In this document: piece by piece, positions 4,633 to 46,391 of the stretch
Layout: the number at the start of each line of letters is the position of its first letter
Numbering within the stretch: position 1 is the first letter of the stretch
DNA from: an uncultured Gammaproteobacteria bacterium
Lineage (GTDB): Bacteria > Patescibacteriota > Microgenomatia > CAZETR01 > Amesbacteraceae
Assembly: GCA_964356225.1 (NCBI GenBank)
Contig: CAYHGA010000002.1
Coordinates: forward strand, 14,894 to 78,893
Reading direction: 5' to 3'
Length of the DNA stretch: 64,000 nt
Program-made: the position numbers and the translations under genes
The notes under the pieces: model-generated
Databases searched by the model: none
Told to the model about the DNA's origin: nothing
What the model saw: the letters and a program-made list of their open reading frames with translations, nothing else

Positions 4633-4660
4633 ATCCCACCTGAAAGGTGGGATTTTTATT
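4633..4660 (+). terminator. Intrinsic terminator between the convergent pcm-side transcript and the APH-like gene
   Basis: Perfect 8-bp stem ATCCCACC-tgaaa-GGTGGGAT at 4633-4653 followed by TTTTATT. The T-run overlaps the stop codon of the convergent minus-strand gene. The minus strand has an A-tract before the same hairpin and a weaker U-tract after it. Confidence 0.7.
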
Positions 4661-27797: not shown

Positions 27798-28423
27798 GTT
27801 ACAGTATGATAAATAGCCATTAAATAACTTAAGAATAATCCGTGCCAGCCGTCCAAAAACCCCAGGTGCCAGATATATCGGCGAAAAAAATCAAAAAATG
27901 GGTTCATGCTTCTGGTTTCGCGGGAGGTGTAACCGTTCATTTTATCCATGAATTCTTCGACGGAATGATAACTGTGATGAATTTTTAGCCCCCGTAATTG
28001 GCCTACCGGTCCGGGAGTGACGATCTCTTCGTGAACCGGGTTTTCCCAATGACCGCGAGTTCTGTCGTAAAGCCAGATATGAGTGTCTGCCGGAGGTTCC
28101 CAATTGGTGTGACGCATTGCTTTGCCGAAAATAATATTTAATCTGGGAATTTTATATGCAGTGTATCGTTCCTGGTTCACGGTTCGTAGTTCATGGATAA
28201 GCTGCGGTGACAATTCTTCGTCTGAATCCAAAGACAACACCCAATTATATTTGCATTTACTGGCAGCAAAGTTTTTCTGATCGGCGAAATTTACAAACTT
28301 ATGGTCGGCATTTGTTATTATGACTACATCGTCGGATACTTGCCGAGCACTTTCTAGGCAACTTGGAAGAATAATAGATTTGTCCTTAGCAATTATGGAA
28401 ACAGAGATCATAAAGTTTAGCAA
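27773..28423 (-). CDS. Glycosyltransferase family 2 (small, GT-A)
   Basis: 216 aa. ISVSIIAKDKSIILPSCLES...VVIITNADH...LSLDSDEE carries the DxD region. Confidence 0.6.
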   Translation of the reverse strand: MLNFMISVSIIAKDKSIILPSCLESARQVSDDVVIITNADHKFVNFADQKNFAASKCKYNWVLSLDSDEELSPQLIHELRTVNQERYTAYKIPRLNIIFGKAMRHTNWEPPADTHIWLYDRTRGHWENPVHEEIVTPGPVGQLRGLKIHHSYHSVEEFMDKMNGYTSRETRSMNPFFDFFRRYIWHLGFLDGWHGLFLSYLMAIYHTVTWVKKSSS

Positions 28424-29339: not shown

Positions 29340-29949
29340 ATTAGTTAAAGAAATAATCGTGGTGAATGACGGATCGACTGACAGAACAAAAGCTCAAATC
29401 TCAAAAGTCAAAGCTCAAAAGTACAGGTTAAAACTTATAGATAAAAAGATAAACGAGGGGAAGGGGGCGGCGGTGAGGGACGCACTGAAAATTGCCACGG
29501 GCGACGTGTTTATTATTCAAGACGCGGATTTGGAATATGATCCTGATGAATACAAATTATTGCTGGAGCCGATTCTAAAGAAAAAAGCAGACGTGGTATT
29601 TGGATCCAGGTTTGTGGGTAATCAACCGCACAGAGTTTTATATTTTTGGCACTATGTGGGGAATAAATTTATCACTCTACTGTCAAATTGTCTGACAAAT
29701 TTGAATTTGACGGATATCGAGACCTGCTACAAAGCTTTTACTAAAGACGTGGCTGATAAGTTGAATTTGCAGGAAAAGAGATTTGGATTTGAACCGGAGT
29801 TTACAATTAAAGCGGCTAAAATGGGAGTACGGATTTATGAAGTGGGGATCAGCTATTCCGGTAGAAGTTACGCAGAAGGGAAAAAGATCAATTGGAAGGA
29901 TGGATTGGTGACATTATGGTGTTTGGTTAAGTATTTTGCGTTTGATTGA
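29203..29949 (+). CDS. GT2 polyprenyl-phosphate hexosyltransferase (DPM1/GtrB-like). The likely start is MKLTVII at about 29260.
   Basis: LTVIIPAYNEEKTVAQVL...VVNDGSTDRT...IIQDADLEYDP is the classic DPM1-like catalytic core. Confidence 0.75.
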   Translation: MLTPCHWLRKAIFMLQFANMKLTVIIPAYNEEKTVAQVLRKVQSNKLVKEIIVVNDGSTDRTKAQISKVKAQKYRLKLIDKKINEGKGAAVRDALKIATGDVFIIQDADLEYDPDEYKLLLEPILKKKADVVFGSRFVGNQPHRVLYFWHYVGNKFITLLSNCLTNLNLTDIETCYKAFTKDVADKLNLQEKRFGFEPEFTIKAAKMGVRIYEVGISYSGRSYAEGKKINWKDGLVTLWCLVKYFAFD

Positions 29950-31991: not shown

Positions 31992-32723
31992 TTATATCCT
32001 TTTTGGAAATGGCTTCACACTTAAACAATAAACTGAAGTGCCAAATGGCAAGTTTATATGTTGGGCGAATAGGGATTCGAATTTAAGCAATATATATAAA
32101 ACGAAGTTGAATGGTTTCCATATAAGTTGAATATCCGATTTTTTTTTAAAATTTAACTTGCGAAACAAAAACGTTGGCAAGAAAAGACTTGAATTGAAAT
32201 AGGTTATTCTTAGAAGTGAAAAGTTAGCTTCTGTAATAATTTTTTTTAACTGCGGTAAACTGAACCTTCTTGTTCCGTGAACCACTTTGTCATGAGTACC
32301 TTTTAGGAACAGAAAGGCTGGCACTCGAACTAGAAAAATACCCCCGGGGCGGAGAACTCTAAATACTTCATCTACAGTCTTGTGTACATTTACAGCTCTG
32401 TGATACAAAACATCTAAGCTAACAACTAAATCAAATTTTGAGGGTGCAAAGGGGAGATGATTAGAGTCGGCTTGCCGTAAAACTTCAATGGGGTATCGGT
32501 GGGCTAACTTGATTGCTTCATGACTAATATCTATTCCTGTGACTCGACCATACTTTTGCAAGACTACGGTAGTGCCTCCTGTGCCGCAACCTAAATCTAG
32601 GATAGAAATCTGTTTTCGGGGAAGAAATTTGTCAAGAAGGTTCAGAGTGAATTCCCTATTTGCTTTATACCACCAATGATTGTTTTCAAGTCTAGATATA
32701 TTGAGGTATTCACTTTTTTGCAT
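31992..32723 (-). CDS. Class I SAM-dependent methyltransferase
   Basis: 243 aa. ILDLGCGTGGTTVVL is SAM motif I, and RPGGIFLV is the post-II motif. Confidence 0.7.
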   Translation of the reverse strand: MQKSEYLNISRLENNHWWYKANREFTLNLLDKFLPRKQISILDLGCGTGGTTVVLQKYGRVTGIDISHEAIKLAHRYPIEVLRQADSNHLPFAPSKFDLVVSLDVLYHRAVNVHKTVDEVFRVLRPGGIFLVRVPAFLFLKGTHDKVVHGTRRFSLPQLKKIITEANFSLLRITYFNSSLFLPTFLFRKLNFKKKSDIQLIWKPFNFVLYILLKFESLFAQHINLPFGTSVYCLSVKPFPKRI

Positions 32724-35244
32724 ATTTACTTCCTAACCATATTAAAACTAACAAAATGATTGTCGTCAGGGAAATAAATGATCCTGGTAACACATATTTC
32801 TGGGGTTTGTACTTGAGAAGATATTCTCCGGTATTTAACACAAAGTATCCATTCAACATATCGTAGGCTGGAACTGGAGTGATAATCTCTTTTGTTTTTA
32901 AATTTGTTAATTCCCAATTGCTGTCAAAACTTTCAGAAAAGACCAACCACTTGTTGGATTCTGTGATTTGAATTTTGTAGTATGTAGGACTTTCTTGTCG
33001 GTATGAAACTGGCTTAAGACTGGAAACTATAGAATTGGTCTTGAGTTGATTTAATTGGTTTAATACTCTGGTACGAATATTGGCCATTTCGCCGCTGGGC
33101 ACGATGGCGAATGCGTTAAGTATATTAATTTGACCATCGGTTATGATTTTAAACTTGGTTCCTGCTGTATATGGACCAACTCGCACCCAGGCAAAATTAT
33201 TTCTTTGGAGTTGGGTGGGGATACTTGTATTTAAAATTTGGACGTAATTTCCTGAATCGCTTAATAATAAACGGACATATAAATCTCCTGACTTGTCTAG
33301 AGTGATTTCGTTTGACTCCTGGCGTCCTTCTGCTATGGAGTAACCTAATCCTAAATCTACGTCACTAAATTTGACTTGGTGCTGATCAAATAAATAATTT
33401 CTGACGAACAGGAAATCTTCCGTGGTTCTGTTCCACCACTCAGCCCCACTAATTATTGATTTTGCGGGCTTGAGATATTGTTTAGGAACCTGGGTCATGA
33501 TCAAATCTAAAACATTTGCGTCATTAAACATAACTTCGTCCCCATTTTGAGGCGCAAAAGGAATACCGTTTTCTAAGTGAACAACCATTTGCGACCGCAA
33601 GGAAGCGCTTGGGGAAGCAAAGAGTTTTTCATAGGTATTGTGGCTACCCACCACCCATTTTGCATTGTTTACTTCGTATAGCCGGGGGGCATGATTGAGA
33701 GTTTTAAATACTGCTAATTTGTCTGACCAAGAAAGGTCTTTCAGCCAAGTTGATTTGGCAAACCAGTCTCTATACCAGTAATAGTATTCTTTTTCGTCCG
33801 GTTTTAGGACTTTTTTCCTTTCGTCTGGATAAGGATAGACTAGATATTCAACTCCGCTAACATCTAATAGTTGGCTGGCGGCTGGGGCTCGTAGATAATT
33901 GAGCACCTCATAACTGCCATCAACAAGATTTAAAAGGGGAAATTTATTCAGAAAGGACATCGATTCTGTCCAAATTTTTTTGTCGGAAATTGGTCCTAAT
34001 GGGGGTTTGGCGGGTAACCACAACAATCGTCCAAAGCCAGAGTCTGTTTCAAGAAGACTGGTTAATTTCTCATAGTCTTTTTGGAAAGGCTGGGGGGTAA
34101 ATGACCCAGACATTTTTCCTAAAAAGGCTGGGCTGGCAACAATCAAGAAATAAAGGGATAGAATTATACTTATTATCTTTTTTGATCCTACTGCTTGAGC
34201 TATGAGTCCGGCATAGCCGATACTTACTAAAATTAAGAATTTGGAGGGATCTCGAAATACGGCAAATCCCGGGATAGATTTGTACAGCCACTCGTATATT
34301 TGCCCAAAAGGAGGAAGGCTACCTTTGGCCAGAAACAGTCCAATTAGTGTTGAGGCAATGAAAAATTTAGATGGTTTTTTTGCAAAAAGTGAAACTGTCG
34401 CAATTGCGGGGATCAACCACAAATACCAACGCACAGGTTGAACGTCCCCAAACAGATTATTAAACCAATGAGGTTGGGAAAAAGCCAGTAAGTGACCAGT
34501 TGTTGCAAAGCTAAATTGAGATAGCTGGGAAAAGTTGGAGTAACTAAAATTTATAGGTACTTGGCTTTTGACTGCCGGCCAGATCCAAAACATATTCCAC
34601 CCAATCAAGATAATTGATAGTAGTGGTATTACTGCTACTGACCGCTTTAGATTCATTAACGCCAAACAACCAAAAAACAGTGGAATTACTCTAATATCAA
34701 ATGATTGGGAGATGATTAAAAGTAAACTTAGTTTGGCAATATTTTCAAGTTTGAAATTGGCAAGCGTTTCGTATCCTAAATAGAGAAGTAATGGAAATAA
34801 GGAATAGATTCCAGCTACAAATATTAATCCCCCATCAATTAGGGTCAGAAAATAAGTGTTGGAAAAATAAAATAGAGTGGCAACAGTAGTGGCCATTTGA
34901 GACATGCCTAGACGCTTCAGAAACTTATCGAGCCCGATTATTCCGATGATCAGTTCCAAAGCGATAATTATTTTCAGTATTAGGGAAAAAGTAAGTCCCA
35001 ATCTGGCTACTTGGGACAATGTAATTAATAAAGGCTGCATCCACATATTGACAATTTGGTTGTGGCCCAAATCTACTCCCCCTAAGTAACTTTCCCAAGT
35101 TTGGGGAAATAAGGAAATTGATCTTAAAGCCGAGTCGGTTAAATAGTTAGTATCGTTACCCGCATTAACAAACCCTAAAAAAAGTATGGAGTGGAATACT
35201 GCAAATAGTAATAGTAATCTAATGATCATCGAATTAACCTCCAA
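32710..35244 (-). CDS. Large polytopic membrane protein, putative GT-C glycosyltransferase (YfhO/AftD-like). The likely true start is ATG at 35229 (MIIRLL), which overlaps the stop of the small upstream ORF as ATGA.
   Basis: 844 aa. About 12 N-terminal transmembrane helices, a soluble extracytoplasmic domain of about 450 aa, and one C-terminal helix (SFISLTTIILLVLIWLG). The first loop has the motif W-x-S-Y-L-G-x-V-D-L-G-H-N-Q, resembling that of the 1174- and 1031-aa proteins. Confidence 0.5.
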   Translation of the reverse strand: MEVNSMIIRLLLLFAVFHSILFLGFVNAGNDTNYLTDSALRSISLFPQTWESYLGGVDLGHNQIVNMWMQPLLITLSQVARLGLTFSLILKIIIALELIIGIIGLDKFLKRLGMSQMATTVATLFYFSNTYFLTLIDGGLIFVAGIYSLFPLLLYLGYETLANFKLENIAKLSLLLIISQSFDIRVIPLFFGCLALMNLKRSVAVIPLLSIILIGWNMFWIWPAVKSQVPINFSYSNFSQLSQFSFATTGHLLAFSQPHWFNNLFGDVQPVRWYLWLIPAIATVSLFAKKPSKFFIASTLIGLFLAKGSLPPFGQIYEWLYKSIPGFAVFRDPSKFLILVSIGYAGLIAQAVGSKKIISIILSLYFLIVASPAFLGKMSGSFTPQPFQKDYEKLTSLLETDSGFGRLLWLPAKPPLGPISDKKIWTESMSFLNKFPLLNLVDGSYEVLNYLRAPAASQLLDVSGVEYLVYPYPDERKKVLKPDEKEYYYWYRDWFAKSTWLKDLSWSDKLAVFKTLNHAPRLYEVNNAKWVVGSHNTYEKLFASPSASLRSQMVVHLENGIPFAPQNGDEVMFNDANVLDLIMTQVPKQYLKPAKSIISGAEWWNRTTEDFLFVRNYLFDQHQVKFSDVDLGLGYSIAEGRQESNEITLDKSGDLYVRLLLSDSGNYVQILNTSIPTQLQRNNFAWVRVGPYTAGTKFKIITDGQINILNAFAIVPSGEMANIRTRVLNQLNQLKTNSIVSSLKPVSYRQESPTYYKIQITESNKWLVFSESFDSNWELTNLKTKEIITPVPAYDMLNGYFVLNTGEYLLKYKPQKYVLPGSFISLTTIILLVLIWLGSKYAKK

Positions 35245-35381
35245 ACTCCAATTACAAAAAGGACTATGAATATATAGTTAGCTAGCTGATCAGCTCGGCT
35301 GTAATGGCCGGTTAAAAGCAGCCCCGCTTCGATGAGCATGGCGACCCAAAGTACGATTAATAATGCATTTTTACTTGGCAT
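35226..35381 (-). CDS. Small two-helix membrane ORF (51 aa) coupled to the 844-aa GT-C gene. It is not in the ORF track.
   Basis: Manual translation gives MPSKNALLIVLWVAMLIEAGLLLTGHYSRADQLANYIFIVLFVIGVWRLIR. The start overlaps the stop of the upstream gene, and its TGA overlaps the ATG of the 844-aa gene. It resembles the 44-aa ORF at 46396-46530. Confidence 0.4.
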   Translation of the reverse strand: MPSKNALLIVLWVAMLIEAGLLLTGHYSRADQLANYIFIVLFVIGVWRLIR

Positions 35382-36696
35382 ACCACACCTCTACTCCATT
35401 GGTTAAGCTTACTCTTTTACTAAAGTTGTTTTGAAGATATGTGTAAATTAAAGGAGTAAATTCCTGTATTTTTTGACCGTCAATTGAAGCCTGGAGGTCA
35501 ACAAGTACAAATTGGGGCGGATCTGATTTTAATGTAGAAATAATGGTGTCTTCAACACCGGGAACGATATTTCCTCTCAAAAGTTCTATCCATGTTTTTT
35601 GAGGAGGTAGGGTTTGTGTTAAATGGTAAATATTATCGTTTACCCCATAAACGTAGATGGGTCTGCCAAATTTGGCATTTTCCTTTACATAATTAACTGT
35701 ATTTTGGGTACTTTGATCGTAAAAATATATTTTCCCCGGGGTGTCTTTAACCAATACCCTGAATGTAAAGAAAACTCCTAGGGTTAAAAGAACAATTGCT
35801 ACAGACGGAGACAATTTACGTGAGATTGTGTAAATTAGAATTGGAAGAGTAATTTGAGCGTGAATTAGGCCAAATCGGGGAAAAACATAGAAAAGCGAAG
35901 CGAACAGGTAAAAATAATGAAATACATTTTTACTTTTTTGTAATAAAAGCGCCGGAATCACCAGAGACAGAAACCTGGCTAACTCGCCAAAAACCGGCCA
36001 CCGGCCTTCCAGTCTGGTATACCCCTGAAGATTGTGACTGACAGTCCAGAACCAAAAATCTTTAAATACTCCAATTTTATATAACCAAAATAGAATGGTT
36101 GCCATTGGCAATCCTCCACCAATGACAAACCAGGCTAAACGCTGAAGTGATGGTCTCCGGTTTAAGACCCATACCCCCGCGGCCAAACAAAGAAAGATCC
36201 CGTGTTGTTTGAATGTTAATAAAACTCCGAAGATGAGTCCACTAAAGAAGTACGTCAAGTTGTTTTTAAATGTCCATCCAGATTCTAGTACGTAAAATCC
36301 CAAGAGTGAAAGAGTGGCGATAAAGGAATCCACCCACAAAGTATTTCCTTCCCAGGAATATAGAAATAACGAATACAATAATAGACTGGCAAATCTGACG
36401 ACTGAGTTAAAATTTTTTAGTATTTTTGACAAGAGCATGAAATTGGCGATTATCAGGAAAATATGAATAATGCGGAGAATTTCAACTGAGTTTAATGGCA
36501 AGAGCATAAATCCGGGGAAATGCTGGTCGTTGATCTGCGTATATGGGAGCATTCCTGATTTTAGAAAATATATTTCTGTGAGAATTTCAGGATAAGGGAA
36601 GAAGGATGACCGCAAAAGAAGAATTAAAAGTAATGAAAGTGGAATAACAAAGGATATTAGGCTAGATACTCTTGTTTGATGATGAGTTTCCACCAT
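35371..36696 (-). CDS. Polytopic membrane protein, putative GT-C glycosyltransferase
   Basis: 441 aa, about 11 transmembrane helices and a C-terminal soluble domain of about 130 aa. Its start overlaps the stop of an upstream DPM1-like GT2. Confidence 0.4.
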   Translation of the reverse strand: MVETHHQTRVSSLISFVIPLSLLLILLLRSSFFPYPEILTEIYFLKSGMLPYTQINDQHFPGFMLLPLNSVEILRIIHIFLIIANFMLLSKILKNFNSVVRFASLLLYSLFLYSWEGNTLWVDSFIATLSLLGFYVLESGWTFKNNLTYFFSGLIFGVLLTFKQHGIFLCLAAGVWVLNRRPSLQRLAWFVIGGGLPMATILFWLYKIGVFKDFWFWTVSHNLQGYTRLEGRWPVFGELARFLSLVIPALLLQKSKNVFHYFYLFASLFYVFPRFGLIHAQITLPILIYTISRKLSPSVAIVLLTLGVFFTFRVLVKDTPGKIYFYDQSTQNTVNYVKENAKFGRPIYVYGVNDNIYHLTQTLPPQKTWIELLRGNIVPGVEDTIISTLKSDPPQFVLVDLQASIDGQKIQEFTPLIYTYLQNNFSKRVSLTNGVEVWYAK

Positions 36697-37373
36697 AGTT
36701 TTATGATCCCGGTTCCGGTCCGGTATAGCCGAGGCAGGTTAAAGAACTGGCTAAACCCACTCGGCCGGTCATAATGGCTGACCGGGACTTCTTTAATTTT
36801 ATAGCCAAAATGGGATATTTTCTTGACTAGTTCTACACAAATAGTCCCCGACGATTCAAATAATTTAACCTTGTCAAAGACTCTTTTTTCAATTAATCTG
36901 AAGTCACAATCGGTGTCGCGGATTGTTAAGCCAAACATCATTTTAACCGTGTGATGGTAAATTCCTCCCAAAACGGTTCTATACCACGGGTCATGGCGGA
37001 CTTTTTTGTATCCGTTTACTAAGCCGGTACCAGGTCTGTATACTGCGAAAAGTTTAGACAATTCGCGCACGTCGTATTGAGCGTCACCGTCGGTATAAAA
37101 AATTAGCTTGCCCTGTGATTTTTTAAATCCAGACCGTAAAGCACCTCCATAGCCCGTGTTTTTGTTGTGGTGAACGACTCGTAAATTTGGAACCAGTCTT
37201 TTCATTGTTTCCAATGCATCTTTGGACATTTTGTTGCTACCGTCATCAACTACCAGAACTTCGAAACTCTTTTTCAATTTTTTGGCAGTTGATACAGACA
37301 AAAGAATCATACTCCCAACTGTCCCCCAATCATTCAGATATGGAAAGAAAATTGTTAGATCAATTTTTTTCAT
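36657..37373 (-). CDS. GT2 polyprenyl-phosphate glycosyltransferase (DPM1/GtrB-like)
   Basis: 238 aa. EVLVVDDGSNKMSKD...FYTDGDAQYD...GYKKVRHDP...RDTDCDFRL is the DPM1-like core. Confidence 0.75.
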   Translation of the reverse strand: MKKIDLTIFFPYLNDWGTVGSMILLSVSTAKKLKKSFEVLVVDDGSNKMSKDALETMKRLVPNLRVVHHNKNTGYGGALRSGFKKSQGKLIFYTDGDAQYDVRELSKLFAVYRPGTGLVNGYKKVRHDPWYRTVLGGIYHHTVKMMFGLTIRDTDCDFRLIEKRVFDKVKLFESSGTICVELVKKISHFGYKIKEVPVSHYDRPSGFSQFFNLPRLYRTGTGIIKLWWKLIIKQEYLA

Positions 37374-37388
37374 CGGGTTGATTCTACC

Positions 37389-38168
37389 ATGATTCTGTGT
37401 GAGAATAACGCCATGTTGAATAAGGGCAGCGGTTTACACATTAATCCCTGGGAAGGACCTGTTTTAAAAGGAGCTGTCAAGGAAATATTTGAAGTTGCCA
37501 AAAGATATTTAAATAAACCAATTAAGTCCATTTCGGTGTTAGATGTTGGCTCAGGACATGGAGAATATTCAGCCGAAATGGCTAAATTATTTGGGCAAGT
37601 AACTGGGGTTGAGCCTATCCGGGATGTCTATAAAGTGGCCACCCAAAAAAGAATTAGAAAGAATCTGAAATTTTTCAATTCCAAAATTGAAGACTTTAAA
37701 ACTCGCAAAAAATATGACCTCGTCACTCATCTCACCGTGTTTGAACACATGTCGAACCCTAAAGCCGGTTTTGACCGAATTTTTTCTCTCCTTAACAAAA
37801 ACGGAGTTGTTTACTTAACAGCCCCGAACAAATATTGGCTTTTTGAGCAACACTACGGTCTGCCATTTTTGTCCTGGTTACCTTTACCCATTGCGAATAA
37901 ATACCTTGAGCTAACAAGAGGAGCAAAATCCTACGAAGACTGTTCCTATTCTCGGGGATATGGTGGCATGAAAAAGTTTTTCGATCAGTACGATTGCCAT
38001 TATGAATTTATTTTACCTTTTGATGAAAACAGTGCATATATTGGGTGCGGAAGAAGCCAATTGGGATTTACTCTTGTAAAGAAGTTGGGATTAAAACTAA
38101 TTCGTCTTAATCCCTTCTTTTGGAATTTTTCTAAGGGGTTCATAATGATAATTAGAAAAAATACTTAA
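37389..38168 (+). CDS. Class I SAM-dependent methyltransferase
   Basis: 259 aa. ISVLDVGSGHGEYSAEM is SAM motif I. Confidence 0.65.
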   Translation: MILCENNAMLNKGSGLHINPWEGPVLKGAVKEIFEVAKRYLNKPIKSISVLDVGSGHGEYSAEMAKLFGQVTGVEPIRDVYKVATQKRIRKNLKFFNSKIEDFKTRKKYDLVTHLTVFEHMSNPKAGFDRIFSLLNKNGVVYLTAPNKYWLFEQHYGLPFLSWLPLPIANKYLELTRGAKSYEDCSYSRGYGGMKKFFDQYDCHYEFILPFDENSAYIGCGRSQLGFTLVKKLGLKLIRLNPFFWNFSKGFIMIIRKNT

Positions 38169-38169
38169 G

Positions 38170-39114
38170 ATGTCCGTTTGTATTGTTTGTGGAGAAAAAA
38201 GATTTTCCTTCCTTTTTAGGACAAAAGACAGAATGTTTGATATTTCGGGGTCATTTGGTGTCAGAAAATGTCGCCGGTGTGGTCTAGTTTTTTTAGATCC
38301 TCAACCATCACAAAAAATATTAGAAAAACACTATCCTCGTCAACAATATTATTCATACAAAGGAAGTATTAAAGGATTGAGTGGCCTGATAAGACGTTTT
38401 CGTTCATATCTTATTAAAAACTATTACGAACCAACGATTTTAAGTGGCACGTTTTCACTTCTTATTCATGATGTTCCCGGAATACCCAAAAAACCTGATA
38501 AAAAGCCGTGGAAAGTCCTTGATGTGGGTTGCGGATCCGGTGATACATTGATGGCTTTGAAAGAATTAGGATGGGATGTGTACGGACTCGAAATAGACAG
38601 AAATGCAATCAGACTTGCGAAGGAGAGAGGGCTTGTGAATATTAAATTGGGTGGGTATGAAAAAATAGAAAATTTTCCCAATAATTACTTTAACTGCATT
38701 AGGTTATATCATGTGATCGAACATCTACCCAATCCATATCGTTGTCTGCAGCTTATTTACAAAAAACTAAAACCAGGAGGAGAAGTTGTATTAGGAACAC
38801 CAAACGCTGGAAGCATGGTGAGTAAAATCTTTGGCAAATACTGGTATAACCTTGATATACCAAGACATCTTTTTGTTTTTTCTCCTAAAACACTTTCGAG
38901 TCTTATTAAAAAGGCAGGTTTCTCTCAAGTTTCAGCCTCTTTTTGTTCTGGCGACGGTTTAGGTAGAAGTGTTATTTATACAATAAATGAGCTCTTTAAG
39001 AAAAAGATGAATACTAACAAATTTACTTTGCTTTTTTTCATTCTCTATCCAATAGAGTGGATTTTGGATAAATTAAGAGTTGGGGACATTGTGATTCTAC
39101 GGGGAATACGATAA
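38170..39114 (+). CDS. Class I SAM-dependent methyltransferase with an N-terminal Cys4 zinc-ribbon
   Basis: 314 aa. CIVCGEK...CRRCGLVF, then VLDVGCGSGDTLMALKELG (motif I) and KPGGEVVLGTP. Confidence 0.7.
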   Translation: MSVCIVCGEKRFSFLFRTKDRMFDISGSFGVRKCRRCGLVFLDPQPSQKILEKHYPRQQYYSYKGSIKGLSGLIRRFRSYLIKNYYEPTILSGTFSLLIHDVPGIPKKPDKKPWKVLDVGCGSGDTLMALKELGWDVYGLEIDRNAIRLAKERGLVNIKLGGYEKIENFPNNYFNCIRLYHVIEHLPNPYRCLQLIYKKLKPGGEVVLGTPNAGSMVSKIFGKYWYNLDIPRHLFVFSPKTLSSLIKKAGFSQVSASFCSGDGLGRSVIYTINELFKKKMNTNKFTLLFFILYPIEWILDKLRVGDIVILRGIR

Positions 39115-39127
39115 AATAATAGCACAA

Positions 39128-39805
39128 TTGCAAAAAATGAAAAAGTTTTTGAGTGTACTAAAAAAAACTTTTCCGCGTTTTGTCCTAGCCACTTTTGTTG
39201 TGGAGGTTGAAAAACACTTAAAAGGTTGCCAGTCGATCTTGGACGTTGGATGTGGCAATAATTCCCCTATTAGTTTTTTAGAAGAAAAATATACTACTGT
39301 TGGTGTGGATGCATATAAACCTGCAATTGAAGATAGCAAAAAAAGAAAAATACATGATGCTTATATACTTGGAGACATAAAAAAGTTGAACTCATTGGTG
39401 AAAAAAAAATCATTTGATGCCGTGCTAGCACTAGACGTGATAGAACATCTAAAAAAAGATGATGGATATAAACTGCTTGATAGTATGGAGAAAGCCGCAC
39501 GAAAAAAAGTAATTTTGGTCACACCTAATGGTTTTATTCCTCAGTTTGATAAAGACAACAAACTCCAGGCACACCTTTCAGGATGGACTGTTGAAGATTT
39601 TAAAAAAAGAGGATACCATGTAGAGGGTATATATGGCACCAAACTTTGCAATATATTGAGGACTGATGAAGCTGAACTAAGGTGGAAACCTAAATTTTTC
39701 TGGGCATTAGTTTGGGGAGTGTTGGTAGAAATAACTCACCATTTGTATACCAAGAAGAACCCGAAATACTCTATTGGTTTACTTGCAGTTAAAAAAATTA
39801 AGTGA
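39128..39805 (+). CDS. Class I SAM-dependent methyltransferase
   Basis: 225 aa. ILDVGCGNNSPISFL (motif I) ... AVLALDVIEHL (motif II/III). Confidence 0.65.
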   Translation: MQKMKKFLSVLKKTFPRFVLATFVVEVEKHLKGCQSILDVGCGNNSPISFLEEKYTTVGVDAYKPAIEDSKKRKIHDAYILGDIKKLNSLVKKKSFDAVLALDVIEHLKKDDGYKLLDSMEKAARKKVILVTPNGFIPQFDKDNKLQAHLSGWTVEDFKKRGYHVEGIYGTKLCNILRTDEAELRWKPKFFWALVWGVLVEITHHLYTKKNPKYSIGLLAVKKIK

Positions 39806-39807
39806 TC

Positions 39808-40827
39808 TCATTTTTTTAAATTTTCCCTCACTAGTGATAAATGATGTAAATAAAAAGATAAAGGAGGGTTTTTCATTACCCGTTTAAAAATCTCGTTGTC
39901 ATCTAGTTTGCGTCTTTTTTGAATAAAACTTCGTTTTTCTAATGTATCATTTATATTTAATATATTCCACCATATTGCCTTAAGTATCGCTACCGACCCA
40001 TCAGTCTGTCCTGATAAGAAAAAATAAGTTGACAACACTACACAAATTACAATATGAATAGGAAACATCCAAAGCAATGTTGTTAAAGATGTGTTCTTGA
40101 TAATTGTTCTTATTCTGTTTTTAAATGAATGGTAATGGATGAAAGCACTTCTCATGGTTGTGCTTGTTGCTCCCATTTTGTGATATATTATTGATTCAGG
40201 TTCGAAGGCAACGTGATACCCCGTGACCCAAGCACGCCAACACAAATCCGATTCCTCAAAATAACACCAATATTTCTCATCAAAAGCACCTAACTCTAAA
40301 ACCGCTTTCTTAACCATCATACATGCTCCTTTGGCCGCAAATGTTTCTCTAAATTTCTTATATTCAGTTTTATCAGTATCCAAATATCCTATATGAAATA
40401 AGAAACCCATATTCGTCAAATAAGAAACTACATTATCAAGTTGTTCTGGATTGTCCATAATAAATATCTTACTTTGAACTATCCCCAAACTGGGGTCTTT
40501 TTCAAGATCAACTACTAGAGGTTCAATAAAACCAGGAGTTACTAAAGTATCATTGTTCAAAATCAACAAATATTTTCCTTTTGCATGTCTGATCCCAGCA
40601 TTGTTGCCACCAACATAACCAGAATTGTTATTGTTTAAAACTTGTCTGACTTTGGGAAACATCTTTTTAATTACCTCTACGGATTCGTCTTGAGAATTGT
40701 TATCGACAACAATTACCTCATAATTAGGGTAAGTTATTTTCTTCAGCGACTTCAAACAATTTAAAGTAAACTGCTTCTGGTTAAAATTTACAATAATTAT
40801 CGAAACTTTTGGATAAATCATTTCCAA
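39808..40827 (-). CDS. Glycosyltransferase family 2 with C-terminal transmembrane helices
   Basis: 339 aa. VSIIIVNFNQKQFTLNCLKSL...YEVIVVDNNSQDES; hydrophobic C-terminus. Confidence 0.75.
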   Translation of the reverse strand: MEMIYPKVSIIIVNFNQKQFTLNCLKSLKKITYPNYEVIVVDNNSQDESVEVIKKMFPKVRQVLNNNNSGYVGGNNAGIRHAKGKYLLILNNDTLVTPGFIEPLVVDLEKDPSLGIVQSKIFIMDNPEQLDNVVSYLTNMGFLFHIGYLDTDKTEYKKFRETFAAKGACMMVKKAVLELGAFDEKYWCYFEESDLCWRAWVTGYHVAFEPESIIYHKMGATSTTMRSAFIHYHSFKNRIRTIIKNTSLTTLLWMFPIHIVICVVLSTYFFLSGQTDGSVAILKAIWWNILNINDTLEKRSFIQKRRKLDDNEIFKRVMKNPPLSFYLHHLSLVRENLKK

Positions 40828-42554
40828 ATACCGATTTTAATGTCTTCCTTAACAGATAAAAACTTTGTGGAAAACATTCCCGAAAGCCCGGCCAGCGTTT
40901 CCAAAGATTTAACCAAGAAAACACCAATTGTTAAAATAGGGTGAGATAGAAGTTTTCTCCAATTTCTAAAAAATGCAGGTCTAAAAATAATATTTCCGTA
41001 CTTTAATGCGAATGCCGGATTTGCCAACATGAGTATACTTGCTGTTCTTCCGTAAAAAAACTTCTTTTTCATGGAGTTGAATATACTAAAATTTCCTTCA
41101 TTATGATAGATTGGTCCACTTATTCTTCCAATCCTAAAGCCCGACCTCCTTACTCTCAAATCTAAGTCTTTATCTTCAGATAAAACCATTTTTTCGTTAT
41201 GACCCCCGACTAATTTGTAAACGGATGTCTTGAAAAAACGGGCAGATTCTATGGTATCATCTCCAACATACATACTTCTCTCGAATATTTTCACTTTTGC
41301 CCAAAAGCCCCTTCCGTATGAAATTTCAGGAATAACGAGAGCGTCATAATTTTTTATCTTTTTTATGCACTGCTCTAGTACTGAAGAAGCAAGTTTCATG
41401 TCAGCGTCCAAATGCAGTAGATACTCACCCCTGGCTAATTCAGACGCGGATTTTCTTCCTTGGGCCATACTAATATTTTTTTGTAGATGTCTTATCTTAA
41501 TTTTTTTGCTAAATCGTTTTAAAAGATATTTTGTGTCGTCCATTGTTTTTACGTCATCATTAATAATGACTTCAAATTTTTTATTTGTTTGTTTCACAAG
41601 CGAAGGAAGCAAATTTTTCAGATGTTCACCTGCATTTAAAGTGGGGACAATGATCGAGATCAAACCTTCTTCTGTCTTACTTTTTTTCATCGGTTCATAA
41701 TTTTTAAGATTTTCCAGTGTCTTGTCTGTAAATATCACTTGAATTGTATTTATAAAACCCCAAAGAGCGGCAAATGTTTCTAGTGTTTTCATCAAAAACA
41801 TTCCTAGCGATAAAGTAGGGTTTGCCAGTATTTTCTTCCAATGCCTAAAATACGCGGTTCTGAAAATTAAGTTGGCTTGATTGAGAGCCTGTTTGGGGTT
41901 TTCTGCTATATAAACGTGTGCTGTTTTACCGTAGAAAAACTTTTTCTGTAAATTTTTTTTAAGACTCAAATTGCCTTCATTGTGATAAATGGGGGCGTTA
42001 ATTCTTCCTATTTTAAAGCCGGCTTTTCGGATTCTTAAGTCTAAATCTTTATCCTCTGATAACACCATTTTTTCATTATGGCCTCCAATTTTGTTGTAGA
42101 CATCCGTCTTGACAAATCGAGCAGATTCTATAGTTTCGTCACCGATATACATGCTTCTTTCAAACGTTTTTACCTTAGCCCAATATCCTTCCCCATATGA
42201 AATTTCAGGAATAATTAAAGCGTCGTACCCTTTGTTAACCTCTTTGATACATGACTCTAACACCTTTGATGATAAAGACATGTCTGCGTCAAGATGTAAA
42301 AGATATTCTCCCGAAGCTTGCTTAGCTCCTCTTTTCCTCCCTTGAGCCATACTAATGTTCTCCCGTAAATATTTTACTTTAAGCTTTTTGCTAAATTTCC
42401 TTAGCACCACTTTTGTATTATCCGTGGTCATTTTGTCATCATTAATAATCACTTCAAAATTTTTGTACGTTTGATTAACTAGAGATGGCAAAAGATCGTT
42501 TAAATAGCCCGCGGCATTTTTTGTAGGAATTATAATTGAGATTAATTTATTCAT
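40818..42554 (-). CDS. Tandem-duplicated two-domain GT2 glycosyltransferase
   Basis: 578 aa. Residues 1-290 and 291-578 are collinear paralogous GT2 modules about 70% identical, for example ISIIIPTKNAAGYLNDLLPSLVNQT versus ISIIVPTLNAGEHLKNLLPSLVKQT. Each half ends in a hydrophobic segment. Confidence 0.75.
   Translation of the reverse strand: MNKLISIIIPTKNAAGYLNDLLPSLVNQTYKNFEVIINDDKMTTDNTKVVLRKFSKKLKVKYLRENISMAQGRKRGAKQASGEYLLHLDADMSLSSKVLESCIKEVNKGYDALIIPEISYGEGYWAKVKTFERSMYIGDETIESARFVKTDVYNKIGGHNEKMVLSEDKDLDLRIRKAGFKIGRINAPIYHNEGNLSLKKNLQKKFFYGKTAHVYIAENPKQALNQANLIFRTAYFRHWKKILANPTLSLGMFLMKTLETFAALWGFINTIQVIFTDKTLENLKNYEPMKKSKTEEGLISIIVPTLNAGEHLKNLLPSLVKQTNKKFEVIINDDVKTMDDTKYLLKRFSKKIKIRHLQKNISMAQGRKSASELARGEYLLHLDADMKLASSVLEQCIKKIKNYDALVIPEISYGRGFWAKVKIFERSMYVGDDTIESARFFKTSVYKLVGGHNEKMVLSEDKDLDLRVRRSGFRIGRISGPIYHNEGNFSIFNSMKKKFFYGRTASILMLANPAFALKYGNIIFRPAFFRNWRKLLSHPILTIGVFLVKSLETLAGLSGMFSTKFLSVKEDIKIGIWK
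40818..42554. repeat. Intragenic tandem direct repeat, two units of about 870 bp each (about 75-80% nucleotide identity)
   Basis: The duplication is seen both in the protein and in DNA. Compare 41170-41350 with 42040-42220. Confidence 0.7.
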
Positions 42555-42870
42555 TTGGGGGTTTAGTCGCTACTTTTAACAGTCTTAAAAAAGAATAAAA
42601 GACAAATGTGTAAATCATGAATCCGGTTTGTATTCCAAACAGGCTTAGTGGCAGAAGAAATAGAATGCTAAAAATGACTAAAGTTTCCGGGACTTTATAC
42701 ATCGTTACTATTGCCAATGAAAATAAGAGCAACTTAAGCTCCAGGCTTTGTTCTAAAATATAAACTTCGGCTCCGGTCTTTATAAGCTCAGAAAAAATAA
42801 TATAGAAAATCAAAAGTAACATAATTTTTGGCTTTTCCAGATGTATATGCGTAATTATATTAATTTTCAT
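42547..42870 (-). CDS. Small polytopic membrane protein, possible GtrA-like lipid-linked sugar translocase
   Basis: 107 aa with 3-4 predicted transmembrane helices. It lies between a GT2 and a giant GT-C gene with 4-8 nt overlaps. Assignment rests on size, topology and context only. Confidence 0.35.
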   Translation of the reverse strand: MKINIITHIHLEKPKIMLLLIFYIIFSELIKTGAEVYILEQSLELKLLLFSLAIVTMYKVPETLVIFSILFLLPLSLFGIQTGFMIYTFVFYSFLRLLKVATKPPNE

Positions 42871-45800
42871 TTTTTTGAATAAAATAATACTAAATATATT
42901 AACCCCAAACTAAACAACGATATTATACTAACTAAAGAAGTTTTATAGAGAATATTTTGGGGCCGATACTCGATAAGAAATGCCAATTCCTTTTCACTAC
43001 CACTGTCTATTAACCAACCGTTGCCATAAGCATTTAACTTAATATCCGGACTTTTAGCCCCCTCTCCCTTAAACACCAAATCTGATAATAAATGCCTGTC
43101 CTGTCTTTCATATTCGACCACTTTTCCGCCCAAGTATTTTTTCTCTCTGCCTTTAAAATAGGAGTTGGCAAGACTTGTTTCTACTTCCCGCACACTCCAC
43201 TGTTGATCAAACCTAGAATTAAAACCTAAAATAAACGAGTCGCTGATACCGGACACTTTGACAAGATAAGCGGTCTGATTAAGCGCTACAAATTGTAAGT
43301 TGTAGTTTTCTGGCGGAATTAATGGATTTTCTTTTGTTACAAAAGCCAAATAATCGGAATAATTTTCAGTGACTTTTATACCTTTTAATTCAAAGGCAGC
43401 AGGAAAGTCATAAGTACCCTCTACACATATTCTTAAGAGGGCCGTTTCTGCATAAATACTTGGTTTATATTTAATATTTAACCTATAGGAAAATGGGGCA
43501 GAAGAATTTTTATCCGTCTGGGGATAAATAGTTTTTTTATTGCCTTTGGGAAATTGTTGATTTGTCTCCAGAAGTTCAATATCCACTAATCTATCGGAAA
43601 GTGTCAAATATTCCAAGTTGAGATTATAGTCTATTTCAGGATCTACCTCACCAAGATTTATTGATTTGCATTCAGAAGATCTAGCGGTTGCGTTGATTTT
43701 GAAACCGGGATAGGATTTCTCTTTGCGAATTAATTCTGGCAAAACTATTGATTGTCCGCCCTGGTCAAGTCTAATTGATTCTCCAAAATACCATTTATTA
43801 CTTGAGGACGACTTTGCAAGGATGTGAGGGGTATTGTTTACGAATCCAGAAAGAGCTTGTCTATCATTGGGCTTGTAATTATAAACAGCCAGTTTGTAGT
43901 TGCCTGCGTATGGTACGTTTATAGTATATTGTTTTGTGCGTACATCGTAATTAGAAATAGGAACCTCGGGAGAAATGTCCAATTCCTGAACGCTCATGGT
44001 TAACATGTCCTCAAATTTGCCTAGTTGTGCCCGAGTTGATTCTGTAAGTCCAGTCTCCCTCCACTTTTGGATACTGACCAAAAAATTCCAGTAGTAAAAA
44101 TATATTCTGCGAGCGTATTCGTCTTTTTGACTTTGTTGGTCAATATCCTTGAAGAACTGATCAACTAGATAGATATTGTTACTCCACTTTCGAAAAAGAT
44201 ACGAAATCGTATTACTATTTTTGGGATTTATTATTATTCTGTCCATGGCTGATATCTCCTTACTCATTGTTCCCATAGTAAAGTCTATTTTTTCTGTTGG
44301 CAGTTCATACTTTTCACTTTTTTGTTGGTCTATAAATTCAATAAGAAAATAAAATGGATTGCTTGGAAAGATCGGAGGAGGGTTTGATCTCACGACGTCT
44401 ATGTATTTTTTTTCTTGACAATTTAAACACTGTGCTTGAATTGTAATGTTTTGAATATCCTTCTGGTATATGATAGGGTCTATATTGCTTCCCTCGCTAA
44501 TGTGCTTGAATATAAACGCGTCTGCCAAAGAAGGCATCCCTGGCGTTTGACTGATTCGAGAAAGTTGTGAAGTTTCTGCCAAAATATATGAAAAATTTTG
44601 TGGGATATAAATGAGAGGTTTTGTCTCGGGGTCGTTAATAGTAAAAAACTTCCACTTACCAACTTCTTTATATAAAGATGAATTAGGCGCGCGGTAGAGT
44701 GCCTTTTTGATTGAACCCGTAAGATAGTCCATGTCCTCGTCAACTTTAAAATCTTCTTGCACGATAGCTCTATCTACTCCCACGTATTTCAGAAGCGATG
44801 ACTGAGAAGATTTTTCAAGTTGTTGATAAATTGCATTAACTAACCCGGGCTCGTCCCCACTCAAGACGGCGTCATTAAGTAGAACCGGTTTTCTGCTCAA
44901 TATGCTGGGTATACTCGATAGGCTGAAGTATTTCCAATCATAAGCAATATATTTATTGCCGTCGTGAAGTTGGGGTAGCATGAGTGTTCTGGCGGAAAAA
45001 CTATTACTATCAAGCTCCTTCTTTGCCTCTAGGATATAGTCTGGAACTTTAACTCTGGTGGAGTATTTATTAGACCAATTGAAAAACACTCCTGTAAAAA
45101 CCGGGTAGTTATATATGCCCAATAAGACGACAAAGGCAGTGAGGCTAAAAAAAGGCGCTCTCTTTACGGTCAGCTGTTTTAAACCGACCGCTACTAGATA
45201 AGAATAAGCAAACCAAAGGGCCATACCAAATTTATAAAAGGGGGTTCGGAAAATCGGAAAACCGGGGATATATTTTAAGGCCAGGTCATATAAGACACCT
45301 GTTGGAGGGTGGGAACCTGCCGTAAAAGGTATTGCTACCAGCAAAATCGCCAGAAATACGACTTTGTAAACTATGTCAGAGTTGGCTTGACCCTTTTTGT
45401 TAAGCAAGCTGAAAAAGGCTATGGCAGGAAAAACGCTGGCAAGCAGTAAAAAGAAATAATTTGTTAGAAGTGTATTGGCATACGGATGGTTGGGATTATC
45501 ATACCAATCGGGTATGCCTTGGAGTTTAATAAGGTTGGTGAAACTGGCATTTTTACTTATCTCGCGACTCCAGGCGATTGCTCCTTCGCTACCACCTGCG
45601 GCACCGATTCTATGTGTATAGTTATATTGATATGAAGCTATGTAGGGATATATCCAGTAGAAGTTGAGTAGGAGGACAAAAATTAAAGATAAAAGAGAGA
45701 AACTTAAAGTTCTTTTGAATTTATCTACAAATGGTTGTGAAGAAATTAGAAAAGTTATTATCGTTGTAGTTAGAGCAACAATGAATAACCCTCCCCATAA

Positions 45801-46391
45801 CGGAATCCCGGCTCCACCGTTTAGGAAAAAAAGTGTTACTCCTACCAGGATGGCATTTTTAAAAACTGACCCTTCTCTTAAATTAACATTGATTATTGCG
45901 AGAGTTATCAAAGGAAGCGCTGAGACAATAGAAAACTTGGACATCTCGGCAATAATCCAGGCCTGGAGAAGATAATGGTTCAGCATGTAAAACAAAGATC
46001 CGGAAATTCTTAAGACGGAATTTTCTTTTTCTGGGTGAAGCGATTTTAAAAGAACGTACATAGTTATCCCGGGAAGGGTAAACCAGAAAATGAAGTCAAA
46101 CTTTTGAGCAAGCTGTAATGAGCCTGTTAGCGCGTAAAAAAACGCCTGTAGGCCGTGTATAAAAATACCGGGGATGGCATCGGTTTGATTAGAACCAAAA
46201 CTGCCAACTCTATCAGTCCAAACAAATAACCTGTCTAACCAAAAGTCTATTGGGGCTAAAGGATAACTCATATCGTGGCCAGCGGCTAAATAACCACCCT
46301 TAAACCACAAAAGCGGTACTAACCCTACTAGGAGAAGGAATATTATTTCCAACCAATACCGATTAAATTTAGGTAGTTTCAACGGTCCCAT
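42867..46391 (-). CDS. Giant polytopic membrane protein, putative GT-C glycosyltransferase (AftD/YfhO-like)
   Basis: 1174 aa. About 13 N-terminal transmembrane helices, first loop GHDMSYPLAP...WTDRVGSFGSNQ, a soluble domain of about 650 aa, and one C-terminal helix. It is a paralog of the 1031-aa neighbour. Confidence 0.5.
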   Translation of the reverse strand: MGPLKLPKFNRYWLEIIFLLLVGLVPLLWFKGGYLAAGHDMSYPLAPIDFWLDRLFVWTDRVGSFGSNQTDAIPGIFIHGLQAFFYALTGSLQLAQKFDFIFWFTLPGITMYVLLKSLHPEKENSVLRISGSLFYMLNHYLLQAWIIAEMSKFSIVSALPLITLAIINVNLREGSVFKNAILVGVTLFFLNGGAGIPLWGGLFIVALTTTIITFLISSQPFVDKFKRTLSFSLLSLIFVLLLNFYWIYPYIASYQYNYTHRIGAAGGSEGAIAWSREISKNASFTNLIKLQGIPDWYDNPNHPYANTLLTNYFFLLLASVFPAIAFFSLLNKKGQANSDIVYKVVFLAILLVAIPFTAGSHPPTGVLYDLALKYIPGFPIFRTPFYKFGMALWFAYSYLVAVGLKQLTVKRAPFFSLTAFVVLLGIYNYPVFTGVFFNWSNKYSTRVKVPDYILEAKKELDSNSFSARTLMLPQLHDGNKYIAYDWKYFSLSSIPSILSRKPVLLNDAVLSGDEPGLVNAIYQQLEKSSQSSLLKYVGVDRAIVQEDFKVDEDMDYLTGSIKKALYRAPNSSLYKEVGKWKFFTINDPETKPLIYIPQNFSYILAETSQLSRISQTPGMPSLADAFIFKHISEGSNIDPIIYQKDIQNITIQAQCLNCQEKKYIDVVRSNPPPIFPSNPFYFLIEFIDQQKSEKYELPTEKIDFTMGTMSKEISAMDRIIINPKNSNTISYLFRKWSNNIYLVDQFFKDIDQQSQKDEYARRIYFYYWNFLVSIQKWRETGLTESTRAQLGKFEDMLTMSVQELDISPEVPISNYDVRTKQYTINVPYAGNYKLAVYNYKPNDRQALSGFVNNTPHILAKSSSSNKWYFGESIRLDQGGQSIVLPELIRKEKSYPGFKINATARSSECKSINLGEVDPEIDYNLNLEYLTLSDRLVDIELLETNQQFPKGNKKTIYPQTDKNSSAPFSYRLNIKYKPSIYAETALLRICVEGTYDFPAAFELKGIKVTENYSDYLAFVTKENPLIPPENYNLQFVALNQTAYLVKVSGISDSFILGFNSRFDQQWSVREVETSLANSYFKGREKKYLGGKVVEYERQDRHLLSDLVFKGEGAKSPDIKLNAYGNGWLIDSGSEKELAFLIEYRPQNILYKTSLVSIISLFSLGLIYLVLFYSKK

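Follow-up and report, generated by a model that had tools for sequence, protein, structure and literature searches.

Three consecutive methyltransferase genes in a Patescibacteria polysaccharide locus, with a probable role in tailoring an envelope glycan

Within a 64-kb stretch of Patescibacteria DNA (contig CAYHGA010000002.1; hereafter the window), three consecutive plus-strand genes encode class I S-adenosylmethionine (SAM) methyltransferases, here MT1, MT2 and MT3, inside a polysaccharide-assembly locus that otherwise runs almost throughout on the minus strand. We propose that these enzymes probably act in the cytoplasm, tailoring activated or lipid-linked sugars of an envelope glycan. A preliminary description of the sequence had placed three plus-strand class I methyltransferases at 37389-39805, one of them with a zinc ribbon and all tightly packed (1-13 nt). 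The open reading frames (ORFs) do lie there, with Pfam matches well above threshold:

37389-38168, plus strand: MT1, class I SAM methyltransferase of 259 amino acids (aa) with a C-terminal extension of ~100 aa and no predicted transmembrane (TM) segment (Pfam Methyltransf_23/31/11).
38170-39114, plus strand: MT2, zinc ribbon followed by a class I SAM methyltransferase, 314 aa (Pfam, AlphaFold, alignment).
39128-39805, plus strand: MT3, small class I SAM methyltransferase, 225 aa if read from TTG 39128 (Pfam).

In Pfam searches, MT1 matched Methyltransf_23/31/11/25/12 (E values of 5e-17 to 5e-12), MT2 matched Methyltransf_23 (1.4e-26) and Methyltransf_11 (6e-17), and MT3 matched Methyltransf_11 (6e-11) and Methyltransf_25 (1e-8). 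The seven-stranded alpha/beta fold of class I methyltransferases was found, and motif I, which reads LDVGSGHG in MT1, LDVGCGSG in MT2 and LDVGCGNN in MT3, is invariant in two family alignments, where family-specific motifs are invariant too. The zinc ribbon belongs to MT2, where four cysteines form two CxxC knuckles (C4xxC7...C34xxC37) that are invariant or nearly so across 20 homologs (down to 46% identity). In the AlphaFold model the ribbon is three-stranded, with a predicted local distance difference test (pLDDT) score of ~90 against a mean of 86 for the whole model. Some public gene calls start MT2 at Met22 (293 aa), losing the first CxxC (window 38170-38232); because C4 and C7 are kept in 19-20 of the 20 homologs, we favour the 314-aa form. 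For MT3 (AlphaFold2 pLDDT 91.5, with non-specific fold neighbours), homologs and public gene calls begin at ATG 39137 (222 aa), which is likely the true start.

The spacers are as short as had been described: 1 nt between MT1 and MT2, and 13 nt between MT2 and MT3, or 22 nt if the latter starts at ATG 39137. On the left, MT1 diverges from a minus-strand glycosyltransferase (GT) gene of family GT2 across 15 nt (37374-37388), a gap so small that any promoters must sit inside coding sequences; on the right, MT3 converges with the next GT2 gene across 2 nt (39806-39807).

Three more methyltransferases had been described in the same locus, and domain matches confirmed each of them:

31992-32723, minus strand: MT4, class I SAM methyltransferase, overlapping the gene for an 844-aa GT-C-like protein by 14 nt and adjoining a Wzx-like flippase (Pfam).
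51267-51959, minus strand: MT5, class I SAM methyltransferase, abutting the end of MT6 (0-nt spacer; Pfam).
51960-53501, minus strand: MT6, a 513-aa fusion of a PHP phosphoesterase, a zinc ribbon and, at the C-terminus, an MT2-like methyltransferase (Pfam, alignment).

All six exceed the gathering threshold of Pfam Methyltransf_11/23/25 and lack predicted TM segments in the TM scan, and MT1-5 are single-domain proteins. Their pairwise identity is only 23-32%, which rules out recent duplication as their origin. Together with a PCMT-like gene (3619-4401) and RsmH, they bring the class I methyltransferases to 8 of the ~52 genes in the window, a share well beyond the few percent that is usual for a bacterial genome.

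No member of the set could be placed in a family of known function. A match to a specific rRNA, tRNA or small-molecule methyltransferase family, named in the preliminary description as a challenge to a glycan role, was not found: none of the six reached the curated NCBIfam or Pfam cut-offs for UbiG/UbiE/MenG, BioC, CmoA/B/M, RsmA/RlmA, PrmA/C, TehB, PmtA, Hen1 or cyclopropane-fatty-acid (CFA) synthase. The best NCBIfam score was to UbiG (62.8 bits, with others at 45.0 and 30.1, against a cut-off of 103), followed at a distance by BioC (34 versus 185), CmoM (29 versus 366), Hen1 (21.9 versus 340) and PmtA (31-33 versus 390), and every NCBIfam match was partial, covering the SAM domain only. Searches against PDB sequences returned mainly structural-genomics proteins of unknown function (3DLI, 3CC8, 2P7H) and then assorted N- and O-methyltransferases. 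Attempts to assign a specific family from NCBIfam, Pfam or PDB sequence were thus given up, all matches being generic. Nearest in sequence to MT2 and MT3 are 3DLI from Archaeoglobus and 3CC8 from Bacillus cereus (BCE_1332), with E values of 4e-18 and 3e-15 for the MT2 profile; their functions are unknown, and they share a 'PN...H' motif after strand 5 with MT2 and MT3 but lack the ribbon of MT2. In the broader form '(T/S/A)P(N/D/F) ... H', this segment is common to MT2, MT5, MT6 and 3DLI/3CC8 and is found more loosely in MT1 and MT3. O-methylation could plausibly use the invariant histidine of this segment (H233 in MT2, H146 in MT3) as its general base.

Conservation across relatives indicates that the trio is a set of functional genes held together by strong purifying selection. 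The MT1-MT2-MT3 run, inverted with respect to the flanking GT genes, recurs in independent assemblies (loci L001/L002, L003, L007, L008 and L013), amounting to at least six other Patescibacteria genomes, with protein identities to the syntenic relatives of 55-81% for MT1, 68-77% for MT2 and 80-86% for MT3, the best conserved of the three. Between syntenic copies, the proportion of synonymous differences (pS) is 0.54-0.83, at or near saturation, compared with 0.07-0.30 for nonsynonymous differences (pN). The resulting dN/dS ratio is ~0.13-0.15 for MT2 and 0.04-0.08 for MT3; for MT1, pN is 0.11-0.30 with pS saturated.

Genomes further removed (MT2 at 43-59% identity) retain MT2, usually without MT1 and MT3, in the neighbourhood of a GT2 and large GT-C-like membrane proteins. 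There MT2 commonly lies directly 3' of an SDR (short-chain dehydrogenase/reductase) gene and a homolog of the GT2 that converges on MT3, and downstream of a ~100-aa membrane protein and proteins of ~1250 and ~680 aa. MT2 is thus the core, most widely kept member, and the trio is a lineage-specific elaboration with flexible membership: GalE belongs to some versions and not to others, and an MT4-like or MT5-like gene sometimes joins. The MT1 family is widespread in Patescibacteria; in a Woesebacteria locus (L033) its homolog has a 4-nt overlap with an upstream GT2 gene and precedes two further methyltransferases. Elsewhere, MT1 and MT3 homologs stand in runs of 2-4 methyltransferases beside GT2 genes, for MT3 including a Verrucomicrobia locus, and related loci bring further methyltransferases, among them FkbM-type Methyltransf_21. 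In every locus examined at the level of gene calls (L001-L006, L029-L034), distant homologs of the three proteins lie among GT2, GT-C-like or sugar-nucleotide genes.

This distribution bears on the idea that the trio acts on something other than a glycan and that its location is incidental. Possible substrates would then be surface proteins or pilins, phospholipid or phosphoethanolamine head groups (yielding phosphocholine), RNA and small molecules. The fold and sequence matches do include N-methyltransferases for phosphoethanolamine and phosphatidylethanolamine, Hen1 and methyltransferases of ribosomally synthesised and post-translationally modified peptides, and class I methyltransferases are promiscuous in substrate, their sequences not revealing what they act on. 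Such matches are generic, however, restricted to the SAM domain and far below family cut-offs, and in each locus examined at the level of gene calls all three families sit among GTs, across ~45-85% identity and with a second phylum included. We therefore consider a non-glycan substrate doubtful.

The public sequences 100% identical to MT2 and MT3, like the best homologs, come from groundwater metagenomes and from metagenome-assembled genomes (MAGs) that carry the labels Azambacteria, Woesebacteria, Levybacteria, Gottesmanbacteria or 'Patescibacteria group', which places the source organism in the Patescibacteria, among bacteria of the Microgenomates type. The genotype is found in Hainich groundwater. 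Many third-party annotation (TPA) MAG records that carry this Patescibacteria-type locus (L007, L009, L010, L013 and others) are titled 'uncultured Gammaproteobacteria bacterium', and one homolog of MT2 and MT1 lies on a 1.7-kb contig assigned to Chitinophagaceae. Both labels probably reflect placeholder or mis-binned taxonomy.

The genomic setting is that of a large envelope locus. The first 1-10 kb of the window hold a reduced division and cell-wall cluster (FtsA, MurG, FtsW, MraY, a penicillin-binding-protein (PBP) transpeptidase, RsmH and MraZ). Genes for polysaccharide assembly fill the next ~50 kb and include at least 17 GT2/GT4 genes, a Bac_transf initiating transferase, ManC, a hexapeptide acyltransferase, Wzy_C, two Wzx-like flippases and a UbiA-family gene. 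A comparison of GC content and codon usage, suggested in the preliminary description, did not set the island apart from its flanks. MT1-3 have a GC content of 0.35-0.37 and the adjacent minus-strand genes 0.32-0.40; GC at third codon positions (GC3) and codon usage were indistinguishable, and with the codon-usage log-likelihood also matching the flanks, a foreign origin of the island was ruled out. A larger step lies further left, where gene GC drops by ~10 points, from 0.41-0.50 (mostly 0.43-0.50) at 1-27 kb to 0.31-0.41 at 29-64 kb, with a boundary at ~28000-29000 and a matching shift in codon usage across the right-hand glycan locus. Low GC is common in surface-polysaccharide loci, and the 29-64 kb block may be a typical example or may have a separate history.

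The strand switch and close packing had been taken as signs of a separately transcribed module. That remains plausible in that the inverted block is kept across genomes, and we infer co-transcription of the trio as a small operon, divergent from a pair of genes for a polyprenyl-phosphate-sugar-synthase-like GT2 and a GT-C-like protein. A promoter and terminator pattern scan showed no enrichment (13 sites versus 14.4 expected from shuffled sequence), and the strand switch is not essential, because MT2 is co-directional with its GT neighbours in distant relatives.

How the trio would work follows in part from where SAM is found. Because SAM is confined to the cytoplasm and each of the six enzymes is soluble, the methyl groups must be added before export. 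MT1, MT2 and MT3 would be non-redundant, each most likely methylating a different sugar or position, probably at a hydroxyl. Their substrates would be sugars on a polyprenyl-phosphate carrier, either a growing lipid-linked oligosaccharide or a single-sugar donor, and less likely nucleotide sugars; the products would then be flipped and built into an envelope polymer by the Wzx/Wzy-type and GT-C-type proteins. As the default we take methylation to occur on the lipid-linked oligosaccharide, by analogy with O-antigen tailoring and with AglP, whose part in the N-glycan pathway of Haloferax offers a precedent for modifying sugars on their carrier in the cytoplasm (PMC3871713).

We infer the substrate class, the choice of O- over C- or N-methylation, and the stage at which methyl groups are added. 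The preliminary description had deduced heavy O- or N-methylation of a glycan from the number of methyltransferases. In so far as the enzymes are real and embedded in a glycan-assembly locus, this stands as the best reading, argued from gene context; the N-methylation part found no support, as no sugar aminotransferase was seen in the window. Nor does the 64 kb hold a 4,6-dehydratase or any other SDR, although these could be encoded elsewhere in the genome, and the lack of both enzyme types in the window disfavours N- and C-methylation. Weighing against the tailoring role are the complete dependence of the substrate assignment on genomic context, a literature search on methylated glycans in the candidate phyla radiation (CPR) that found nothing, and promoter and terminator scans that favour neither the presence nor the absence of a separate transcript.

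Two specific analogies in the preliminary description, to methyl-capped O-antigens and to methylated mannose or glucose polysaccharides, did not survive the survey of the locus. In the first, one methyltransferase would methylate the non-reducing end of the chain, stopping elongation and licensing export, in the manner of WbdD (Escherichia coli O8/O9a) and WsaE (Geobacillus S-layer glycan), both chain-terminating methyltransferases. The glycan-locus context and a nearby polymerising double-GT2 protein would suit such a cap. However, the 64 kb contain no ABC transporter, no methyltransferase in the window is fused to a kinase or a coiled-coil ruler domain, a WbdD-like architecture is missing, the export genes are Wzx-like, Wzy_C and GT-C-like, and 3-6 methyltransferases exceed the needs of a cap, making this explanation very improbable. 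Fainter still is the prospect of an intracellular polymethylated polysaccharide resembling mycobacterial methylglucose lipopolysaccharide (MGLP) or methylmannose polysaccharide (MMP). It would account for the many methyltransferases and for the GDP-mannose pyrophosphorylase (ManC), but nothing in the window points to intracellular polymers: the same export and extracytoplasmic machinery dominates, and no acyltransferase or hydrolase set like that of MGLP/MMP clusters was seen. CPR bacteria, moreover, largely lack the fatty-acid synthesis that MGLP and MMP are thought to regulate, which also counts against it.

For MT2, structure comparison pointed towards nucleotide-sugar enzymes. The top 10 Foldseek hits of its model were MtmC, KijD1 and TcaB9 (E values of 3e-15 to 3e-13), with alignments covering both the zinc ribbon and the SAM domain; the TM-scores were 0.55-0.62 when normalised to the query and 0.44-0.49 when normalised to the target. 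These are the only structural relatives of MT2 that also cover the ribbon, and they share its N-terminal four-cysteine zinc-binding domain. MT2 might accordingly act like them at the level of a nucleoside-diphosphate (NDP) sugar, possibly C-methylating a 4-keto intermediate to give a branched or methylated donor, and an SDR gene often adjoins MT2 in other loci. Against this, MT2 lacks their C-terminal NDP-sugar-binding domain (Methyltransf_14), being 314 aa long versus ~405-420 aa; PF08421 and PF08484 (Methyltransf_13/14) gave no match in MT2 at E<=0.01; sequence identity is only 16-19%; and the 4,6-dehydratase expected for a 4-keto-sugar pathway is not among the genes of the window. In the closest relatives (L001, L007 and L013), the SDR gene after MT3 encodes a GalE equivalog (UDP-glucose 4-epimerase; 345 bits versus a cut-off of 262) rather than a dehydratase. 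A 4-keto-sugar route to C-methylation was accordingly set aside, and we think it quite unlikely that MT2 works on nucleotide sugars. The modelled fold link is a hint towards sugar chemistry, not family membership. In the same three relatives, GalE is the fourth plus-strand gene after MT3 (L001 9655-10662, L007 11668-12666, L013 11639-12640); no trace of it was found between MT3 and the convergent GT2 of the window (39805-39808).

The trio is flanked by, and shares the locus with, genes that could supply and use lipid-linked sugars:

35371-36696, minus strand: 441-aa GT-C-like protein with 7 TM segments, its gene overlapping the next by 40 nt (weak PMT_2 match, E 0.01; TM scan).
36657-37373, minus strand: soluble GT2 of the polyprenyl-phosphate glycosyltransferase type (ArnC/GtrB/DPMS-like), divergent from MT1 (PDB sequence search).
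39808-40827, minus strand: Leloir-type GT2, 339 aa, convergent with MT3 (Pfam, sequence search).
40818-42554, minus strand: double-GT2 protein, 578 aa (two Glycos_transf_2 stretches; syntenic at 72-77% identity).
42547-42870, minus strand: 107-aa protein with 3 TM segments (TM scan, no Pfam match).
42867-46391, minus strand: 1174-aa GT-C-like protein with ~8 N-terminal TM segments, a large extracytoplasmic domain and a C-terminal TM segment (TM scan).
53505-54383, minus strand: UbiA-family membrane transferase, best matched by polyprenyl-phosphate phosphoribosyltransferase, or decaprenylphosphoryl-5-phosphoribose (DPPR) synthase (Pfam UbiA 1.8e-23).

The GT2 at 36657-37373 matched ArnC (2.7e-16, residues 7-211), GtrB (7e-10) and DPMS (1.7e-7) in the PDB search; its homolog is the first gene of the plus-strand methyltransferase operon in L003 and lies directly before an MT4-like methyltransferase in L034. 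The Leloir-type GT2 at 39808-40827 has a homolog directly adjoining MT2 in eight loci (L004, L005, L012, L014, L015, L020, L024 and L026). A gene of 99-116 aa occupies the position of the 107-aa protein in L003, L006 and L034, and this protein is a candidate small flippase-like partner. The window encodes 6-7 large GT-C-like proteins with 7-12 TM segments and big extracytoplasmic domains (844, 1174, 1031, 543, 510, 441 and 446 aa), of which the 510-aa protein matched PMT_2, and the 441-aa protein and the 446-aa protein, encoded further left, did so weakly. Orthologs of the 1174-aa protein carry precomputed PF11847 GT-C_AftD matches; the window's own copy had none at Pfam E<=1, and no literature on AftD in CPR was found.

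At the right-hand end, the order is the UbiA gene, 3 nt, MT6, 0 nt and MT5. The UbiA protein scored 97.6 bits (E 8e-28) against the DPPR synthase model NF008977, below its cut-off of 234, and also matched PRK08238 ('UbiA family prenyltransferase') over profile positions 194-372 of 482, below the cut-off of 351. MT6 has its own zinc ribbon (C229xxC...C267xxC), and in its C-terminal half it is paralogous to MT2 (E 6e-21, with 25% identity across 246 alignment columns). Adjacency of the UbiA and PHP-methyltransferase genes is kept in L037-L040, down to 68% identity; MT5 is absent from L038 and L040 and hence dispensable. The full-length MT6 fusion is rare, found in only one other 50%-identity cluster representative among 1.84 billion, and its two halves are common as separate proteins (PHP of ~217 aa, zinc-ribbon methyltransferase of ~300 aa).

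These neighbours raise the possibility that MT1, MT2 and/or the methyltransferase domain of MT6 methylate polyprenyl-phosphate single sugars at the cytoplasmic face, which would then be flipped and transferred by GT-C proteins outside. MT1 is divergent from the ArnC/GtrB/DPMS-like GT2, whose gene overlaps a GT-C-like gene and whose homologs head a methyltransferase operon or directly precede a methyltransferase. Directly after the DPPR-synthase-like UbiA comes a PHP phosphatase fused to a paralog of MT2, and the products of the 6-7 GT-C-like proteins could be methylated only before export. Mycobacterial arabinan synthesis proceeds through DPPR synthase, a phosphatase, DprE1/E2 and the GT-C enzymes AftA-D/Emb. 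Kelly et al. (2024) described a UbiA-type polyprenyl-phosphoribose synthase, a phosphatase, a flippase and a GT-C as a widespread extracytoplasmic pentofuranose route, and argued that a cytoplasmic epimerase remodels the lipid-linked donor, undecaprenyl-phosphate (undP)-ribofuranose, before export (PMC11127046). Cytoplasmic modification of undP-pentofuranose donors therefore has a precedent (PMC11127046). In contrast, our literature search found none for SAM methylation of a polyprenyl-phosphate monosaccharide, MT2 adjoins the Leloir-type GT2 at least as often, and the GT2 coupled to MT1 in L033 could not clearly be assigned to the polyprenyl-phosphate type. Nor, to our knowledge and in the literature searched, has SAM methylation of a lipid-linked ribofuranose been described. 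On this balance, methylation of single-sugar donors is a possible but somewhat unlikely alternative to methylation of the growing oligosaccharide. A narrower form of the proposal, which we hold to be unlikely, is that MT2-type enzymes and the PHP/MT2-like fusion methylate such donors in the cytoplasm and that GT-C proteins install the pre-methylated sugars outside. By analogy with the pentofuranose route (PMC11127046), the PHP domain would remove the 5-phosphate and the fused methyltransferase would methylate the lipid-linked ribofuranose; alternatively, a polyprenyl-phosphate hexose would be methylated.

Several other features of the window were recorded. Five minus-strand proteins have no significant Pfam match: 844 aa (32710-35244), 1174 aa (42867-46391), 1031 aa (46533-49628), 543 aa (49615-51246) and 589 aa (60225-61994). 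Four of the five are GT-C-like, with 8-12 TM segments and a large external domain, and in three of those four the C-terminus carries a further TM anchor; in the 589-aa protein the sole element of this kind is a TM or signal segment at the N-terminus. Between the PMT_2 GT-C gene and UbiA lies a 431-aa soluble protein (54373-55668, minus strand) with weak matches to NTP_transf_5 and to a P-loop (thymidylate-kinase/MeaB-like); it is syntenic in relatives, and in L038 and L040 tblastn aligns it as two separate segments. A GT2 with two TM segments (57163-58215) was considered as GtrB-like and rejected, its best match being a membrane mannosyltransferase structure (6YV7). A second plus-strand exception in the locus is a single GT2 gene (29203-29949), whose maximal ORF overlaps both minus-strand neighbours and whose public call is shorter (229 aa). 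Adjoining it are 27773-28423, with a partial GT2 domain only, and 28386-29339, a GT4 with a weak N-terminal domain, both of which may be degraded. The division and cell-wall cluster also contains the PCMT-like methyltransferase, on the plus strand, and an APH-family kinase-like gene (4656-5423). MraY and the PBP gene are separated by a DAGK-type kinase gene (7317-7685), and no Mur ligase genes were seen in this stretch of the window.

A huge share of bacterial diversity belongs to the Patescibacteria (CPR), most of them uncultured. Members of the group live attached to other cells, and their envelope chemistry is almost uncharted. That a polysaccharide locus should contain several methyltransferases is in itself common and expected. 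What stands out here is the number of enzymes, their conservation in CPR and the neighbouring PHP-methyltransferase/UbiA pair. The locus and its relatives describe a sub-lineage that keeps a large glycan block rich in GT-C-like proteins, with 3-6 dedicated methyltransferases under strong purifying selection, and the predicted surface polymer would be heavily methylated and hence more hydrophobic and enzyme-resistant. MT1, MT2 and MT3 represent three uncharacterised, well-conserved methyltransferase families that are candidates for sugar methylation, and the PHP-methyltransferase fusion beside UbiA is a testable lead on donor methylation before export. If donors are indeed methylated, a 'methylate the lipid-linked donor' step would be added to three-component glycosylation, and a Patescibacteria-wide envelope polymer pathway would be defined.

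Among known systems, WbdD and WsaE methylate a carrier-linked glycan in the cytoplasm, as proposed for the trio, but the traits that mark them (an ABC transporter, a kinase, a coiled-coil ruler, a GT fusion) are not found in the window, which has a multi-methyltransferase set in place of one cap enzyme. Pentofuranose systems (PMC11127046) use a phosphatase of the HAD or PAP2 type, whereas the window has a PHP domain, from a different superfamily, fused to a methyltransferase. The DprE1/E2 or SDR epimerase and the MATE flippase of the pentofuranose and mycobacterial arabinan systems were not found in the window, and methylation is not known from any described system of this kind. In common with these systems, the window has a UbiA/DPPR-like gene, an adjacent phosphatase domain, GT-C-like proteins and a polyprenyl-phosphate-sugar-synthase-like GT2. 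The sugar O-methyltransferases of O-antigen, capsule and S-layer glycan clusters are likewise soluble and act before export. So is AglP of Haloferax volcanii, a soluble class I methyltransferase encoded among GTs and flippases and acting in the cytoplasm before export, as we propose here (PMC3871713). The trio has no detectable specific sequence relationship to AglP or other glycan-tailoring methyltransferases, and it differs from them in standing among 3-6 such enzymes per locus in an uncultured Patescibacteria host.

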